A stretch of 10,688 nt of DNA, taken from a virus (taxonomy: Duplodnaviria > Heunggongvirae > Uroviricota > Caudoviricetes). Under the pieces are notes generated by a model, which saw nothing but the letters and a program-made list of their open reading frames with translations, had not been told where the DNA came from and searched no databases. The DNA lies in IMG/VR virus record IMGVR_UViG_2695420822_000015; one strand, written 5' to 3'. The translations under genes and the position numbers were made by a program. Each line of letters begins with the position of its first letter. Position 1 is the stretch's first letter. Shown here one piece after another: positions 2,871-10,688 of the stretch.

Positions 2871-3935
2871 ATGGCTAACGCCTGGCTCAGATTATGGCAT
2901 GACATGCCAAATGACCCTAAGTGGCGAACAATTGCCAGGGTGTCAGGGCAGCCAATTGCAACAGTGATGGCAGTGTATATCCACCTCCTGGTGAGCGCGT
3001 CACGAAATGTCACGCGAGGTCACATTGATGTCACGACAGAAGATTTGGCAAGTGCGCTCGACGTGACAGAAGAGGTAATTGATTCAATTTTGCAGACGAT
3101 GCAGGGGCGGGTACTTGATGGTGATTTAATCACTGGATGGGAAAAACGCCAGGTGCTTAAAGAGGACAACGGCAATATTTCGCAAACCGCAAAATCTCCT
3201 GCAGAGCGCAAGAGGGCGCAGCGAGAGAGGGAAAGAAAGCGGGAACAAAATGGCGATTGTCACGGCGCGTCACGAAATGTCACGCACATGTCACGACGAG
3301 TCACGACAGATACAGATAAAGATACAGATAAAGAAGATCAAAACACTATGGTCCATGGCGTAAAAAACGCCACGAACCAGGCAGGGGATGTTCAGACCGT
3401 CAATCCTGGTCAGCCAGCAGGCTCGACACCGGAAGCCGATTCAGCGTATGCGCTGAAAGCCGATTCGGGCGCTGTGCAGCAGGTGATGACCGCAAGGCCG
3501 GAGCAATCACTCCAACTGCAGCAGCCTGAAGCCGATTCCGCCATTCAGCGGGAAGCCGATCGGGTAGCCCCGGAAAACACCGGGCAGCCTGTGGGACGAG
3601 TGGATTATCCGGATGTGTTCGAACAGGTCTGGCGGGAATACCCGTTGCGTGCCGGGGCAAACCCGAAGAAATCCGCATTCAGTGCCTGGAAGGCCAGATT
3701 GCGCGAGGGGGTGCCACCAGAGACCATGCTGGATGGTGTGAGGCGTTACGCGAGATACCTGGCGGCGACCGGGAAAGCGGGAACGGAATTTGTTCAGCGA
3801 GCGACGACGTTTTTTGGGCCGGACCGGAATTTTGAAAACCCCTGGTTGCTCCCGGTAAGCGGCACGAACAACCAGCGTTGTGTGAATCATATTTCTGAAC
3901 CGGATACCGAAATTCCGCCGGGATTCAGGGGGTGA
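2871..3935 (+). CDS. Phage replication initiator / replisome organiser (lambda O-like, YdaU-like)
   Basis: Lies directly upstream of the dnaC-like gene. Contains iteron clusters in its coding sequence, as lambda O contains ori. Low-complexity acidic/Pro/Gln-rich linker in the middle. SD GAGG 5 nt before ATG 2871 (track start GTG 2865). Confidence 0.7.
   Translation: MANAWLRLWHDMPNDPKWRTIARVSGQPIATVMAVYIHLLVSASRNVTRGHIDVTTEDLASALDVTEEVIDSILQTMQGRVLDGDLITGWEKRQVLKEDNGNISQTAKSPAERKRAQRERERKREQNGDCHGASRNVTHMSRRVTTDTDKDTDKEDQNTMVHGVKNATNQAGDVQTVNPGQPAGSTPEADSAYALKADSGAVQQVMTARPEQSLQLQQPEADSAIQREADRVAPENTGQPVGRVDYPDVFEQVWREYPLRAGANPKKSAFSAWKARLREGVPPETMLDGVRRYARYLAATGKAGTEFVQRATTFFGPDRNFENPWLLPVSGTNNQRCVNHISEPDTEIPPGFRG
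2999..3035. repeat. Iteron cluster 1: four GTCACG/GTCACA copies phased about 10 bp apart
   Basis: GTCACG at 2999, 3009, 3030 and GTCACA at 3019; an inverted copy CGTGAC at 3062-3067. Helical-turn phasing. Confidence 0.5.
3259..3332. repeat. Iteron cluster 2 (five GTCACG copies) plus 12-bp tandem repeat; candidate phage origin
   Basis: GTCACG at 3259, 3269, 3279, 3290, 3300 (spacing 10-11 bp). The 19-mer GCGTCACGAAATGTCACGC occurs at both 2997-3015 and 3268-3286. Immediately followed by perfect tandem GATACAGATAAA x2 (3309-3332), an A+T-rich patch. Confidence 0.55.
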
Positions 3936-3941
3936 TGTGGC

Positions 3942-4719
3942 ATGAAAAACATTGCGGCAGCCGGGGTTCTTGAACGTATTCACAGACTTGCACCACAGGG
4001 GGCGGTTCCACCGTACCGGACGGTGGAGGAGTGGCGGGGGNNNNNNNNNNNNNNNNNNNNNNNNNNNNGAATGGCAACTTGCTGAAGGACGAAAACGCAG
4101 CGAGGAGATTAACCGCCAGAATCGCCAGTTGCGGGTGGAAAAAATCCTGAATCGTTCGGGCATCCAGCCTCTGCACAGCAAATGCTCGTTTGCGAATTAT
4201 CAGGTGCAGAACGACGGGCAAAAATACGCGCTGAGCCAGGCCAAATCCATAGCTGACGAACTGATGACCGGGTGCACGAATTTTGTGTTCAGCGGTAAAA
4301 CCGGCACCGGGAAAAATCACCTTGCAGCGGCGATGGGTAACCGGCTGATGGCGAAGGGGCGCAGCGTGATTATCGTCACCGAGTCTGATGTCATGAGCGT
4401 GTTGCATGACAGCTACGACAACGGCAAATCCGGTGAAAAATTTTTACAGGAGCTTTGTGGTGTTGACCTGCTGGTCCTGGATGAAATTGGCATGCAGCGG
4501 GATACGAAAAACGAGCAGGTGGTACTGAACCAGATTGTTGATCGCCGGACGGCATCGTTACGCGGTGTGGGGATGCTGACAAATATTAACCATGCAGCGA
4601 TGAATACACTTCTCGGCGAGCGGGTGATGGATCGCATGGTCATGAACGGCGGGCGCTGGGTGAATTTTAACTGGGAGAGCTGGCGTCCGAATGTTAGCCA
4701 TTCGAGGGTTGTTAAGTAG
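3942..4719 (+). CDS. DnaC-like helicase loader (phage replication protein, AAA+/IstB-like), interrupted by assembly gap
   Basis: Walker A FSGKTGTGKNHLAAA, Walker B DLLVLDEIG; C-terminal LGERVMDRM closely resembles E. coli DnaC. ATG 3942 (MKNIAAAGVLERIHRL...) lies 6 nt after the O-like stop. The track's TTG 3952 start is in another frame and is an artefact of the 28-N gap. Confidence 0.8.
4041..4068. other. Assembly gap (28 N) inside the dnaC-like gene
   Basis: Run of N; gap length is not a multiple of 3, so the reading frame across it is undefined. Confidence 0.95.
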
Positions 4720-5620: not shown

Positions 5621-6346
5621 ATGGAAACTGTATTTGACGCACTGAAAGCACTGAAAAGAGCCTCTTCACATGTGGTGGCGTCCCGCCTTGGAATCAGCCG
5701 TGAAGATGCGGTCAACGAACTGTGGAAACTGAAGCGCCGTGGTGAAGCGGATAACAAGGGTTCGATGTGGTGGCTGATTCAGGCTGGTGAAAGTGAACCA
5801 GTGTCACCGGTACCGAAAGTGACAGCGCAAATGCTGACTGAGGCGATTGAACAACATGGCCCACAAACGGCGGATGAGCTGGCACTGATGTTCGGGATTA
5901 CCTCCCGCCGGGCGAATTCATCGCTGGCCATGGCAATCAGCAAAGGGCGTCTGATTCGCGTGAATCAGGGCGGTAAATTTCGGTACTGCATACCGGGCGC
6001 TGATTTACCGGCAGAGCCGAAAGCCGCATCCATAGCGGAAACGGATGGTAAAGTCTTTCCTCAGCCAGCAGGTGTTGCGTTACCGGTACAGGAAGCTGCA
6101 ACACAGGAAGAAATTAAAACAGAAACTGTGGCGGACATTGTGCAGTCGTTGCCATCGTTCACCGAAACGCAAGCGGATGACCTGGTTTTACCATCGCTGC
6201 ATATGGCAAACCGCGAACTGCGTCGGGCGAAAAGTCATGTCCAGAAGTGGGAGCGTGTCTGCGCCGCGTTGCGGGAGCTGAACAAGCACCGGGATATTGT
6301 TCGACAGATTGTCGATTCCTCCGGTCGTATTGTGTCGGAAAAGTGA
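5621..6346 (+). CDS. Hypothetical phage protein with two putative winged-helix-like segments (241 aa)
   Basis: GGAGGA SD 7 nt upstream of ATG 5621 (track start TTG 5603 is in the same frame). Follows the third dnaC fragment. Segments [22 protein letters not shown] and [31 protein letters not shown] resemble the wHTH of the neighbouring gene family. Confidence 0.6.
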
Positions 6347-6998: not shown

Positions 6999-7055
6999 GT
7001 GAAATTAGCTATCAGGCTTCAATTACCGCTGGCATTCGCATCAAAGGAGAGGAGC

Positions 7056-7412
7056 ATGGAAATAAAACCAGAAGATGAGTTAAGCAATATTGTTTTATTT
7101 CCGGTAAAAGAGGATAACCCTCGTAATCAGGTTAATTTTCTTTATGAGCCATCGGAAAGACCATATTGCCATCACGCCTCTGTCCGGGTTGACGAAAAAG
7201 AGCGTCAGGTCCGCTGTAAAATTTGCGGTGCAGTTGTGGAGCCATTTGACTGGATGCTCTCTGTGGCGAAAAGAGAAACCAGACTGGCAGATGATGTAAG
7301 GCTCTTGCGCCAGGAGGAGCGGGAAAGGCGAAAAAATATAGAAAAGCTAATCCAGATTGAGCGTAATGCGAAAGCGCGGATACGCAGGGTGACAAAATAT
7401 AGCCCCGAATAA
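7056..7412 (+). CDS. Hypothetical zinc-ribbon-like protein (118 aa)
   Basis: Strong SD GGAGAGGAG before ATG 7056. Motif Y-C-H-H...(14)...C-K-I-C suggests a Cys/His metal-binding knuckle. Basic, Arg/Glu-rich C-terminal tail that may be helical. Confidence 0.55.
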   Translation: MEIKPEDELSNIVLFPVKEDNPRNQVNFLYEPSERPYCHHASVRVDEKERQVRCKICGAVVEPFDWMLSVAKRETRLADDVRLLRQEERERRKNIEKLIQIERNAKARIRRVTKYSPE

Positions 7413-7551
7413 TCAAGGTTATTTCTGGAAGTCAAGTCGTGAGTGATGAGGACTAACAAATACGGTGAACTCGATAAAGAGATTCAGGACGAACTGGAGG
7501 CCAGGAATGATTGACAAATCACCAAGTGAGTTCAGCTACAAAGATTTATTG

Positions 7552-7567
7552 TCATAACGGGTTATGA
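7552..7567. promoter_or_regulatory. Perfect 16-bp palindrome TCATAACGGGTTATGA upstream of the methyltransferase gene (possible operator)
   Basis: 7-bp arms around a 2-bp centre, 60 bp upstream of ATG 7627. A consensus -35 hexamer TTGACA lies at 7511-7516. Confidence 0.35.
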
Positions 7568-7626
7568 GATCGACTTGGTGCGTGATATTCTTCGGGCCAG
7601 TTTGCTATGCGCCACCATGAGATGTT

Positions 7627-9459
7627 ATGGCCCGCATGTTTGATACATTAGGATTTTACATTATGAATGTGCAACATTTTGATTTTTTTACAGATAATGA
7701 GTTTTCTAATCTGGAAAGATATCAAACTTGTAAAGCCATGGCCAAAGGTTATGCGGGCAATTACAAAACCGGGCAGTCAAGGTTGATGCATGCCCGCTCA
7801 TACTGCTTCAGCATCGTAGCTGCATATTGGGATACCCTTGCAAAAAAGCAAAAAAGCAGCATTAAAATGAGGGCAGTACCGCACACTGTTTACATAGAAG
7901 ACATTCCATGTGATGCACGCGAGCTCGCTGAACGAACAGGTGAGCTTATTGCTCAATTTCCGGCGGAGGACGCTGGATATCTGATTGGGTCAATTTATAC
8001 GGTAATGCTGCCATCCGCTTACCGTTCGGAATTGGGGGCTTACTATACCCCCCCACCTTTGGTAGCGCGTCTCTTGGACCTGGCTGAAAAGTCTGGTGTT
8101 GATTTTTCTCATGCATCGGTTATTGATCCTGCGTGTGGTGGCGGTGCATTTTTGGCACCAGTAGCCATTCGAATGTTAAAAAAAGACAAGGGGCCTTCCC
8201 CTGAATGGATGTTGAGGAGAATCAGTCGTCGTTTAAAGGGGATAGAAATCGATCCATTTGCGGCTTGGATGAGTTTGGTATTGCTCGAATCTGTACTAAT
8301 GCCACTATGTGTAAAGGTAAAACGTAGATTGCCTGAAGATACAATTATTGTTGCTGATGCGCTTCAGCAAGATAAATTTTCTGGTTATGATCTTGTGGTA
8401 GGGAATCCGCCTTACGGACGTGTCACTCTCGATATTAAAACGAGAGAAAAATATTCTCGTTCGTTATTTGGTCATGCAAATCTATATGGATTGTTCACCG
8501 ACTTAGCTGTTCGCATGGTTAAAGAGAAAACAGGAGTTATTGCATTTCTTACGCCAACTTCTTTTCTTGGTGGGCAGTATTTCACCGCGCTGCGAACCCT
8601 TTTGACCGAAAAAACTACTCCGTATGCCCTTGATTTCGTCACTGACAGGGATGGGGTCTTTGACGATGTTCTCCAGGAAACAATGTTGACAGCATTCAAG
8701 GCGGGAGAACATAAAGTTCGGGCCCAGGTATCCTCACTTGTCCCTAAGGGGTTGAACAAAGCAAAAATTGAGAAAATAGGTAATGTTGATATAGAAAAAG
8801 GTGGAGCAACGTGGCTTTTGCCACGCGTTAAAGATGATGCCTGTTTTCTTAATGTATTAAAACAGATGTCTACGCGTTTAGCTGATCTGGGATACTCAGT
8901 CTCTACAGGTCAGTTAGTCTGGAATCGATTTAAGTCGCAGTTGCGTACGACGAAAGGAAAAAATAGCTACCCATTAGTCTGGGCGGAATCAATAACTTCA
9001 GCTGGTTTTCGTTTTAGTGCAGACAGAAAAAATCATGTTCCCTATATCGATATAACCCCACAACAGGGTTTCCTTGTGACAAAATCTGAATGTGTGCTTG
9101 TTCAGCGGACAACATCGAAGGAACAGGACAGAAGGATTTTAGCGGCAATTTTACCTCAGGGATTTATAGATGAAACTGGTGGCGTAGTAGTTGAAAACCA
9201 TATTAATATTGTATATTCAAACGGATTGTTCTCTGCGGTTCGCCCTGATGTTATTGATATGCTACTTAATTCGCATGTTGTCGATCGGGCGTTCAGGTGT
9301 ATAAGCGGAAGTGTTGCTGTTTCGGCCTATGAATTGAATTCAATCCCGTTGCCTTCTCTGGAGCAGGTGATGGAGATTCAATCGTTAATTGATGCTGGCG
9401 TCCACAGACGGATTATTGAGAGAACTATCGCTGGTTTCTATGGAGTGATGATTGCATGA
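7627..9459 (+). CDS. N6-adenine DNA methyltransferase, gamma class (Eco57I/TaqI-like motif order)
   Basis: Motif X GAYYTPPPLVARLLDL, motif I IDPACGGGAFL (SAM binding), motif IV VVGNPPYG, in the order X-I-IV. About 130-aa N-terminal extension and about 280-aa C-terminal region (presumed target recognition). AT-rich codon usage. Start could be ATG 7627, 7636 or 7663. Confidence 0.85.
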   Translation: MARMFDTLGFYIMNVQHFDFFTDNEFSNLERYQTCKAMAKGYAGNYKTGQSRLMHARSYCFSIVAAYWDTLAKKQKSSIKMRAVPHTVYIEDIPCDARELAERTGELIAQFPAEDAGYLIGSIYTVMLPSAYRSELGAYYTPPPLVARLLDLAEKSGVDFSHASVIDPACGGGAFLAPVAIRMLKKDKGPSPEWMLRRISRRLKGIEIDPFAAWMSLVLLESVLMPLCVKVKRRLPEDTIIVADALQQDKFSGYDLVVGNPPYGRVTLDIKTREKYSRSLFGHANLYGLFTDLAVRMVKEKTGVIAFLTPTSFLGGQYFTALRTLLTEKTTPYALDFVTDRDGVFDDVLQETMLTAFKAGEHKVRAQVSSLVPKGLNKAKIEKIGNVDIEKGGATWLLPRVKDDACFLNVLKQMSTRLADLGYSVSTGQLVWNRFKSQLRTTKGKNSYPLVWAESITSAGFRFSADRKNHVPYIDITPQQGFLVTKSECVLVQRTTSKEQDRRILAAILPQGFIDETGGVVVENHINIVYSNGLFSAVRPDVIDMLLNSHVVDRAFRCISGSVAVSAYELNSIPLPSLEQVMEIQSLIDAGVHRRIIERTIAGFYGVMIA

Positions 9460-10538
9460 ATCTGCCTGTTGTTCCCCCATTGAATGTTATCCGGGAAAGA
9501 TTACAATTAATTTTCCCTGAAGGGACTGAGAATCGTGGATATTTAATTCGGGAAATAGCTGCAAAAACAATTTTTGTCATGTTTTATGCTGGTGCGGTTG
9601 AGGGGCTGGGGCGATGGATAAGGCCCAGCCAGGTTGTAAGTATGGGAGATTCGCAGGCTGCTCTTACTGATGATGCGTCCAGAGAAAGCTGGGTAAAGAT
9701 GACTTTCTCTAAACAAAAGATAAGGCCTGCTGATGCATGGTATGCGGAAAATACGCGTGAGCCAATACGTGATGAAACTATAAAAAATGGCCTAATACCT
9801 TGCAATGCAATTGTTGAGCGTAAAGGTATACCCACCACATCCTCTCGTCCTCGTTACAGTTTGAATCGCTCTTTTGCAGCACTCTTTGATGCCGGGCTTG
9901 AAGGAGATTCGCTGCTGAGTGCAATAAGTTCCTGGCAAGAAAATCATTTGAACAAAGCCGCTCTTGCTAGGTTGCGTTTATTGAAATCAGGGGCAGTGAT
10001 TGCTGCTGATGCCGTAGTCGTCACTTTCCCAAATGGAGAGAAGAGAACTTTAGCTCCGGGCCCGTCAAGTACAATAGCTAAGGCCGTCATCGAAGTTTTT
10101 GCTCCTAATTTTCTTAAGAATCCAACTGTGCTCTGGTTGTCTGAATCCGGGAATAAAGTTGTTGCTCAGGATGATGTATTGGCAAAAGCATTGGGGCTGA
10201 ATATTGATGCCTCAAAAGCACTTCCAGATATTATTTTGATTGATTTGGGAGAGGACCGAACGGGTTCGGACATGCTTGTAGTTTTCACTGAAGTAGTTGC
10301 GACAGATGGGCCTATAAACAGGGAACGAAAAGTTACTCTCACTCATTTGGCTATTGACGCTGGGTTCAGCGAGAAAAATCTTGCATTCCTTACGGCATTT
10401 ATGGACAGAAGTGCTCTGCCTTTTAAAAAGGCAATACCAGAATTGGCGTGGGGATCTTATGCATGGTTTGCTTCTGAACCGGAGCACTTAATTGATCTTC
10501 GGGATGGTTATCCGGTAAAGATCAGCCAGAGAAAATGA
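9456..10538 (+). CDS. MTase-coupled partner protein (360 aa); putative restriction endonuclease or other effector, family unassigned
   Basis: ATG overlaps the MTase stop (ATGA 9456-9459); GGAG about 10 nt upstream. Same AT-rich composition as the MTase. No Walker motif, HNH or clear PD-(D/E)xK triad identified by eye; candidate acidic cluster IDLGED...FTEVV. Confidence 0.55.
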   Translation: MNLPVVPPLNVIRERLQLIFPEGTENRGYLIREIAAKTIFVMFYAGAVEGLGRWIRPSQVVSMGDSQAALTDDASRESWVKMTFSKQKIRPADAWYAENTREPIRDETIKNGLIPCNAIVERKGIPTTSSRPRYSLNRSFAALFDAGLEGDSLLSAISSWQENHLNKAALARLRLLKSGAVIAADAVVVTFPNGEKRTLAPGPSSTIAKAVIEVFAPNFLKNPTVLWLSESGNKVVAQDDVLAKALGLNIDASKALPDIILIDLGEDRTGSDMLVVFTEVVATDGPINRERKVTLTHLAIDAGFSEKNLAFLTAFMDRSALPFKKAIPELAWGSYAWFASEPEHLIDLRDGYPVKISQRK

Positions 10539-10688
10539 CCAAAGTTTGATATCCGCCACGCCCTGAAGGATGGGGGTTTTACGGTGCACTGGATAAAAAA
10601 TCGGTTTCATAGATTTGCCCACCGTGGTATACGCCTGCGATAAAAACTTTATTGTCATCAACGGCAAAAGCAATAATTGTTCTGTGGC
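10488..10688 (-). CDS. Hypothetical ORF, 5' end beyond window; doubtful
   Basis: Minus-strand frame is open from the window edge to the stop at about 10488. It overlaps the 3' end of the 9456..10538 gene by 51 bp (convergent). No family recognised. Confidence 0.2.
   Translation of the reverse strand, partial: ATEQLLLLPLMTIKFLSQAYTTVGKSMKPIFYPVHRKTPILQGVADIKLWSFSLADLYRITIPKIN

Follow-up and report, generated by a model that had tools for sequence, protein, structure and literature searches.

How is a restriction-modification (R-M) cassette that is carried by a prophage expressed, and which parts of its leader take part in this? The question is raised by the interval in front of a methyltransferase (MTase) gene and an endonuclease gene in the viral record IMGVR_UViG_2695420822_000015, of which a stretch of 10,688 nucleotides, here called the window, was analysed. 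A preliminary description of this interval had read a TTGACA hexamer as a consensus -35 element, and had suggested that a palindrome acting as an operator, or two mini open reading frames (ORFs) acting as leader peptides in attenuation, would suit a delay of restriction. We favour, with moderate confidence, a different account, in which the interval has two parts that have nothing to do with each other: a fossil junction between phage genes at approximately 7463-7548, and the cassette's own control region at 7549-7662, which includes a predicted extended -10 promoter. The coordinates of all features are collected in Table 1.

The interval was compared with its counterparts in some 30 relatives (30 non-redundant cassettes of at least 64% protein identity, groups A-D among them), found in the lambdoid nin regions of Kluyvera, Klebsiella, Citrobacter and Enterobacter, in P2-like prophages after gpA (Serratia and the L202 metagenome contig), in a chromosomal island of Klebsiella africana and in many metagenomic and viral contigs. 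It can be seen that the sequence TG-n-TAT-(T/C/G)-CT lies 66-88 nt 5' of the MTase ATG in 25 of the 30, in leaders from lambdoid prophages, a P2-like prophage and the chromosomal island that are otherwise unalignable; the five relatives that lack it all have Serratia-type leaders (group C). The background rate of the motif is 0.016 per 100 nt. Within it the TG, T at -12, A at -11 and T at -7 are invariant, the spacer base and position -9 vary, and the invariant positions are those that define an extended -10 sigma-70 promoter. At the -35 position the relatives have sequences as different as TTATGA, GTATGT and TTCACT, and a variable -35 is usual for this class of promoter. We infer from this conservation that TGaTATTCT at 7583-7591, 72 nt upstream of the MTase start, is the active promoter of the cassette. 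Two other candidates on the + strand, TTGATA...TATGAA (7640-7667) and TGaTACATT (7641-7649), were rejected because their spacing or sequence is not conserved. In the group D leaders (L110, L111, L124, L125 and L126) an inverted repeat, ACACAC-N9-GTGTGT, abuts the -35 sequence TTCACT approximately 20-45 nt 5' of the TG motif; this is a possible operator in that sub-family, and it has no counterpart in the window.

The predicted promoter lies within a leader that travels with the cassette. Sliding identity to three close relatives climbs from 0.2-0.4 to above 0.9 across approximately 7500-7560 and collapses after 10538, and the right boundary of the cassette is exactly the endonuclease stop codon. 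Over 7549-7662 the leader is 93-97% identical to those of Kluyvera and Klebsiella and 81-84% identical to that of Citrobacter, while the gene body of the same relatives is about 80% identical and 49-63% of its 4-fold degenerate sites differ. Since the leader is 93-97% identical where silent positions have diverged to this extent, the alignments indicate that it is clearly under purifying selection. The suggestion that a control region is present in the interval was thus sound, in that selection there is strongly purifying, although the elements originally proposed do not belong to what is conserved, and the leader extends to 7662, past the end at 7626 given in that description. As a whole the leader is not family-wide, because an nhmmer profile of the group A leader recovered group A alone from 90 distant-relative loci. 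Rfam gave no match at gathering thresholds anywhere in the window, and a permissive search of 7400-7800 returned only a chance microRNA match (E = 0.69).

The same M-R cassette and leader were observed in unrelated contexts: after gpA in P2-like settings (L091, L202) and in lambdoid nin regions (L082-L090, L093). The L095 copy lies in the K. africana island beside SIR2-like and ParA-like genes and the type VI secretion gene Hcp; the near-identical locus L094 also has a transposase gene. No recombinase of their own was seen with the prophage copies, and insertion sequence-type transposase fragments flank the K. africana copy (L094).

Distances in the leader depend on where the MTase gene begins. 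The preliminary description took the start to be at 7627. Nearly all of the listed homologues, by contrast, are 12 residues shorter than the 610-residue ORF and begin at the residue encoded at 7663, the closest of them (84-89% identity) being 598 residues long. M13 of the longer form is an invariant alignment column, the PADLOC profile covers residues 1-596 of the 598-residue form, and the GGA core of the Shine-Dalgarno (SD) sequence in front of it is invariant. For these reasons the functional start is most likely the ATG at 7663 and not that at 7627. In Klebsiella, Kluyvera and relative L205, the equivalent of the 7627 ATG opens a 12-codon upstream ORF (uORF), which ends in a TGA that shares bases with the MTase ATG (TTATGA); in the window this uORF is brought into frame with the MTase by the insertion of 1 nt near 7659. 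An in-frame ATG 36 nt upstream of the MTase start is also found in L201 and in K. africana L095.

The left part of the interval has a separate origin. A sensitive BLAST search of 7413-7662 against phage genomes gave a sole match, at 7467-7514 (81-83% identity, E values down to 1e-4), to gene junctions in the Klebsiella phages RothC, KpF5 and Kp488x. In RothC and KpF5, the following gene (ASCH or EaA) takes its SD sequence and its ATG, which overlaps the stop codon, from GGAGGCCTGGAATGACTGA; the C-terminus of the 114-residue RothC protein reads ...EIDEEIENELEAWND, the RothC/KpF5 protein ending in ...ELEAWND. The counterpart of this junction in the window is ...ELDKEIQDELEARND* with GGAGGCCAGGAATGATTGA, and there is an in-frame stop upstream of the 3' stub, at 7440-7442. 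We conclude from the alignment that approximately 7463-7548 is the debris of a junction between two lambdoid-phage genes, on the left edge of the mobile cassette, consisting of about 17 last codons, their TGA, and the GGAGG and ATG of the next gene. GGAGG-N6-ATG is accordingly beyond chance and is the relic of a real gene start. To the left of other cassettes the junction is found in decayed form (GTG and four codons in Klebsiella, no GGAGG in Kluyvera), a distribution from which we conclude that it came along with an ancestral copy of the cassette. The relic pieces are presumably no longer functional.

All of the motifs named in the preliminary description are indeed present: GGAGG at 7496-7500 with an ATG at 7507 and an ORF of 16 codons and a stop (7507-7557), TTGACA at 7511-7516, and an ORF of 18 codons and a stop at 7564-7620. 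The interval also lies 5' of an MTase operon, as Pfam, PADLOC and PGAP all identify an M gene followed by an R gene. As the -35 element of a promoter, however, TTGACA lacks a workable -10: CAGCTA, AGCTAC and GCTACA are the hexamers found 16-18 nt 3' of it. It occurs on the + strand of the 10.7 kb three times against approximately 2.6 expected, which is chance frequency, and reads ACGACA, TTAATA or CGAATA in the closest relatives. It represents codons 2-3 of the truncated gene and is accounted for by the fossil junction.

What had been called a perfect 16-bp palindrome is an inverted repeat with arms of 7+7 bp, TCATAAC (7552-7558) and GTTATGA (7561-7567), around a GG centre that is not complementary, so that 14 of the 16 positions pair. 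Perfect 7+7 inverted repeats with a spacer of up to 4 nt number 7 in the window against 3.0 +/- 1.9 in mononucleotide shuffles, and 4% of shuffles have one such repeat in a 250-nt stretch. Folded as RNA, the palindrome has an energy of -3.3 kcal/mol (z = -0.3). The left arm is found as TCACAAC, CCATATC or CTATAGC, and is lost in Klebsiella, Citrobacter, L205 and group B, while the right arm is invariant; pairing of the two arms is therefore not maintained. No small helix-turn-helix (HTH) controller gene was found among the ORFs of 7413-10688, in the annotation or in related loci, and a sequence-profile test of MTase residues 1-120 gave no Pfam match to an N-terminal HTH at E <= 0.01. Together with the uncompensated variation of the left arm, these findings speak against a palindromic operator. 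Fur-like and C-box-like resemblances, judged by eye, were dropped as unconserved.

Of the two mini-ORFs that were said to be preceded by SD sequences, the first does have its GGAGG, but the second has no SD sequence, only GGG 2 nt before its ATG. The first ORF has 10 codons in Kluyvera and 4 in Klebsiella, and GGAGG is absent in Kluyvera and Citrobacter; the second is frameshifted in Citrobacter, is reduced to ATG-TGA in group B and lacks an ATG in L201, and its substitutions between the window and L205, read by eye, are not concentrated at third codon positions. Neither ORF is conserved, and a terminator scan of 7000-8000 found none on the + strand and sites only on the minus strand, at 7418-7403 and 7955-7941, which argues against leader-peptide attenuation. 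The first of these minus-strand sites, a terminator-like hairpin and T-run at 7403-7418, is at the junction of phage backbone and insert, where it could halt leftward (antisense) transcription leaving the cassette.

The scheme of a TTGACA promoter, a palindromic operator and attenuating leader peptides is largely refuted by these comparative data, and we regard it as extremely unlikely. Although GGAGG-N6-ATG is a strong translation signal that elsewhere in the window marks real genes, and the perfect repeat is of a kind uncommon in shuffled sequence, TTGACA, GGAGG, both ORFs and the left arm vary even where the adjoining leader is 93-97% identical. The GGAGG, ATG and TTGACA have their homologues in a phage gene junction of the ordinary kind, and there is no alternative hairpin with a U-run behind it. 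The original observation was real and is mostly explained; the locus is ordinary, with one modestly interesting open point, a block of constrained silent sites at the start of the MTase gene.

This block became apparent when amino-acid-invariant degenerate codons were compared between codons 1-30 and codons 31-560 of the MTase, separately for each group. Of such codons, 7 of 22 within codons 1-30 varied silently against 315 of 391 beyond them in group A (p = 2e-6), and 3/14 against 315/387 in group B (p = 4e-6). The effect was also seen in group C (12/23 against 288/356, p = 0.003) and was not significant in group D (13/17 against 184/209, p = 0.25). The constrained block is thus MTase codons 1-30 (7663-7752), with a sharp edge near codon 30. 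A candidate promoter motif on the minus strand within it is shared by groups A, B and L202 but missing from group D and L201, a distribution that correlates with the silent-site constraint.

Two predicted stem-loops, one in the 5' untranslated region (UTR) and one within the silent-site block, bracket the unpaired SD sequence and AUG. In the first, CCAU/AUGG is replaced by CCAC/GUGG in K. africana, a compensatory change, and an insertion in L205 is confined to the loop; in the second, alignment columns 110 and 124 change from U-A to A-U in four group B sequences. Covariation over the two hairpins is weak (0.121 against 0.100 +/- 0.011, a value reached by 17 of 500 shuffles). The fold of the whole 5'UTR was no more stable than shuffles (z = -0.22), a 162-nt fold that included codons 1-33 gave no global structure signal (z = -1.3), and when all groups were aligned no consensus structure survived (consensus energy -1.5 kcal/mol). 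We consider it plausible that the two hairpins are real. The hairpin at 7606-7638 is followed by GUUUGAUAC and has no U-run terminator. Two other pairings were discarded: a long-range one predicted by RNAalifold for groups A and B, between the SD/AUG and codons 25-30, which is gone when all groups are included and whose pairs never vary and are uninformative, and a CGGGCCA/TGGCCCG stem (7593-7599 with 7628-7634), which is broken without compensation in Citrobacter.

In the account that we favour, a weak constitutive sigma-70 promoter of the extended -10 type at 7583-7591 would start a transcript near 7598-7600, with a 5'UTR of approximately 65 nt that would contain one stem-loop (7606-7638) and a free AGGA (7649-7652) ahead of the MTase start at 7663. 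The methylase would be made first, with the endonuclease gene following in the same transcript, and endonuclease expression would depend on transcription, and probably on translation, through the methylase gene, a presumed coupling. No controller protein, operator or leader peptide would be involved, and phage early read-through probably adds expression after induction. Known modes of R-M regulation, including C-box control, autorepression, methylation-sensing and attenuation, are summarised in PMC3874152 (sections 16-21). C-box control, autorepression by the MTase, methylation-sensing and attenuation are argued against here because there is no controller gene, no HTH, no CTGCAG in the leader and no + strand terminator. 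A methylation-sensitive promoter in particular was rejected on the positions of CTGCAG, the putative recognition sequence, of which the window has two sites, at 3199 and 3516, and the leader none.

A number of points weigh against the proposed promoter. A consensus promoter scan of 7000-8000 on both strands, which requires a decent -35, reports no promoter-like site. The C at -8 is invariant and is unaccounted for by the sigma-70 consensus, so the motif could serve another factor, and the case for a promoter is built from the motif and its conservation. Neither an identity of 93-97% over 114 nt nor constraint at silent sites is required by a promoter, a UTR and a ribosome-binding site, and more is probably encoded there. 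The intact 7+7 palindrome of this lineage, whose centre is approximately 40 bp 5' of the predicted transcription start, may be a lineage-specific protein site. Finally, the cassette lies in the path of rightward early transcription with no + strand terminator upstream, and read-through may contribute. Carried to its limit, this last point gives an explanation in which the prophage copy of the cassette lacks its own promoter and is expressed only by read-through from phage early (pR-type) transcription, the TGnTATyCT motif and the leader forming an RNA- or protein-binding element, for example for mRNA stability or translation. In the nin region the cassette points the same way as the replication genes, which would suit such an arrangement, as would the poor -35, the invariant C, conservation beyond the needs of a promoter, and local hairpins that are more stable than shuffles. 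However, the motif is at the same distance from the gene in the K. africana island, beside a divergent transposase gene, and after gpA in a P2-like prophage, settings that lambdoid read-through cannot supply; the positions that are invariant in it coincide exactly with the defining ones of an extended -10 element; and a host would gain no defence from an R-M system that stayed silent in the lysogen. We therefore think it quite unlikely that read-through is the only source of expression.

The conservation itself might be ascribed to history and not to selection, if the leader and the first 90 coding nt were a younger left end acquired by recent recombination. The cassette clearly moves among unrelated prophage backbones, and the high-identity block (7549-7752) abuts its recombination-prone left junction. 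The same pattern is nonetheless seen against four lineages (Kluyvera, Klebsiella, L205 and Citrobacter) and independently within group B, the leaders of groups A and B can still be aligned though their 4-fold sites are saturated, and the extended -10 motif persists in group D, although nothing else of the leader can be recognised there; recombination is in our judgement a very unlikely explanation. A further proposal would add to the sense promoter and not replace it: a convergent antisense promoter within the first 30 MTase codons, from which a cis-antisense RNA over the ribosome-binding site, the 5'UTR and the sense promoter would tune the methylase and hence the endonuclease. The candidate has the form TG-a-TAT(C/T)(T/G)T with TTGGCC or TAGCCA at 17-18 nt, and scores at least as high as the sense promoter on an approximate position weight matrix (PWM). 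Silent variation is low in codons 1-30 of group A and, independently, of group B, and not in group D, which lacks the site. Reverse promoters have precedents in Type II R-M operons (PMC3874152, section 21; PMC3141266). Against these points, the invariant protein sequence RYQTCKAMAK dictates most of the bases in the site, leaving just two of its key bases, 7716 and 7719, as silent positions. Constraint for reasons of translation is also common at AT-rich 5' coding ends, a terminator for such an RNA is lacking, the PWM is approximate and the consensus scan lists nothing at this position, and both EcoRI and Eco29kI have R, not M, as their first gene. The antisense promoter is on this evidence rather unlikely. 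Also a doubtful proposition is that the approximately 200 nt of 7549-7752 form a compact cis-regulatory module of mobile, controller-less M-then-R cassettes, in which a weak sense promoter would face an antisense promoter, two hairpins would bracket the ribosome-binding site, and the ratio of methylase to endonuclease and its timing after entry into a new cell would be set. If it were true, the module would extend reverse-promoter control of the EcoRI type to methylase-first operons on prophages.

Table 1. Features of the leader and the R-M cassette, in window coordinates.
Feature	Position	Strand	Evidence and remarks
Upstream prophage gene, hypothetical protein	7056-7412	+	PGAP; weak Pfam Zn_Ribbon match; phage backbone
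3' stub of phage gene, pseudogene remnant, ...ELDKEIQDELEARND*, TGA stop at 7512-7514	7463-7514	+	BLAST to phage junctions
Fossil ribosome-binding site GGAGG (7496-7500) and ATG 7507, overlapping the stub stop	7496-7509	+	Alignment; phage annotations
Mini-ORF1, 16 codons, 5' stub of truncated phage gene	7507-7557	+	Not conserved
TTGACA, orphan -35-like hexamer, codons 2-3 of the stub (ATT GAC A)	7511-7516	+	No -10 partner, unconserved
Conserved leader travelling with the R-M cassette	7549-7662	+	Sliding identity; leader compared with 4-fold sites
Imperfect palindrome TCATAAC-GG-GTTATGA	7552-7567		Only right arm conserved; right arm is the -35 position of the predicted promoter
Predicted -35 TTATGA, 18-nt spacer	7562-7567	+	Poor; coincides with conserved right palindrome arm
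Mini-ORF2, 18 codons	7564-7620	+	No SD; unconserved beyond closest relatives
Predicted extended -10 element TG-a-TATTCT (TG 7583-7584, hexamer 7586-7591)	7583-7591	+	25/30 relatives
Predicted transcription start	7598-7600	+	Inferred, about 7 nt after the -10 hexamer, standard sigma-70 geometry
5'UTR stem-loop AUGCG-CCA-CCAUGA-GAUG-UUAUGG-CC-CGCAU	7606-7638	+	-12 kcal/mol, z = -2.4
Upstream in-frame ATG, PGAP start (610-residue form)	7627-7629	+	PGAP
MTase Shine-Dalgarno AGGA	7649-7652	+	GGA core invariant in 30/30 relatives; a few have GGGA or CAGGA, not TAGGA
Type II N6-adenine DNA methyltransferase, 598 residues from conserved start	7663-9459	+	Pfam, PADLOC, homologue alignment
Stem-loop in MTase codons 6-22, within silent-site block	7678-7726	+	Inverted repeat; -11.2 kcal/mol, z = -2.7
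Candidate convergent antisense promoter: TG-a-TATCTT 7724-7716, -35 TTGGCC 7745-7740, predicted start about 7709	7716-7745	-	Approximate PWM scan; hypothetical
BsuBI/PstI-family Type II restriction endonuclease	9456-10538	+	Pfam, PADLOC, ORF coordinates

A lambdoid (Rac/Qin-like) prophage in E. coli FDAARGOS_943 matches the window with 100% identity, and the segment 7380-7720 is carried by only 2 of 5,426 complete E. coli genomes. Among E. coli and plasmid sequences the leader had, besides the two identical genomes, one junction match only. In the identical genome PGAP gives the order phage replication genes, a DUF977 gene, the hypothetical gene that ends at 7412, MTase, endonuclease, ParD/RelE, DUF968, RusA and Q, and labels the two cassette genes an 'HsdM family' methyltransferase (7627-9459) and a BsuBI/PstI-family Type II endonuclease (9456-10538). 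The interval is thus a gap of 214-250 nt ahead of an M-then-R operon that lies in the nin region and reads in the same direction as the replication genes, and likeness to other E. coli phages, by BLAST against phages, stops at 7398-7416. The MTase matches Pfam Eco57I (1.7e-13) and N6_Mtase (3.6e-09) and the PADLOC profile MTase_II (1.3e-298), and has an NPPY motif in the alignment; the endonuclease matches PF06616 (BsuBI_PstI_RE, 9.3e-45), PF17728 (BsuBI_PstI_RE_N, 1.2e-30) and the PADLOC profile REase_II (2.8e-128). The endonuclease ATG overlaps the MTase stop codon (ATGA, 9456-9459), with a GGAG of its own at 9442, and this overlap is kept in most relatives. By these profile matches the cassette is a Type II M-then-R system of the BsuBI/PstI endonuclease family, with predicted methylation and cleavage activity.

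Some further observations were made on the prophage. A run of 93 Ns occupies 4041-4133, within the replication-gene region. Directly 3' of the endonuclease gene, on the opposite strand, is a RelE/ParE-ParD toxin-antitoxin pair (approximately 10579-10688 on the minus strand and on past the window end; 12200-12774 in the source genome L001), and two addiction-type modules are thus adjacent in the nin region. In L001 a cro/cI-like gene (5634-5877), an ATP-binding replication gene (7435-8182) and the antiterminator gene Q (14611-15299) are annotated as frameshifted, and because of this the prophage that bears the cassette is probably defective.

For the annotation of this locus, the methylase start should probably be moved to 7663, what were called a 'consensus -35' and an 'SD-preceded leader ORF' belong to a fossil junction, and the promoter is most likely the extended -10 element. 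More generally, a BsuBI/PstI-family cassette without a controller moves among lambdoid and P2-like prophages and chromosomal islands, taking along some 115 nt of leader of its own. It is reasonable, if not urgent, to ask how cassettes that lack a controller and put the methylase first keep from killing a new host, and the silent-site block in codons 1-30, with its candidate antisense promoter, is one concrete lead at a locus that is otherwise ordinary.

The closest known systems by enzyme family are PstI and BsuBI. The endonuclease here has both BsuBI_PstI_RE domains and is partnered by an N6-adenine MTase of the Eco57I/N6_Mtase type. The genes of PstI are divergent; in the present cassette M precedes R in the same orientation, with an ATGA overlap and an MTase of 598 residues. 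We found nothing specific in the literature on the regulation of PstI or BsuBI.

Among regulated systems, those with C proteins, such as PvuII and Esp1396I, delay the endonuclease after entry by means of palindromic C-boxes at the promoter (PMC2647307; PMC3874152, section 16). The cassette faces the same problem of delaying the endonuclease, but its relatives have no adjacent controller gene and its palindrome is unconserved. Autorepression by the MTase, as described for the SsoII/Ecl18kI/EcoRII type, has as its expected operator an inverted repeat over the -35 region of the M promoter (PMC3874152, section 17). The inverted repeat of the window likewise overlaps the predicted -35 region; on the other hand, residues 1-120 give no Pfam HTH, the N-terminus is conserved family-wide as part of the enzyme, and the left arm varies without compensation. 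In EcoRI and Eco29kI, reverse promoters and antisense RNAs have been described (PMC3874152, section 21; PMC3141266; PMC3113576), to which the candidate convergent promoter in the 5' part of the first gene of the operon, facing the sense promoter, is similar. Their first gene is R, whereas here it is M, and the candidate here consists of a motif and silent-site constraint only.

The control region that we propose is perhaps best compared with extended -10 (TGn) sigma-70 promoters, including those of prophage 'moron' cassettes. As in these, TG stands one base 5' of a hexamer with T at -12, A at -11 and T at -7, the -35 is weak and variable, and the element keeps a fixed distance from its gene and moves with the cassette between prophages. 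It differs from them in the invariant C at -8 and in conserved sequence that extends far beyond the predicted promoter.

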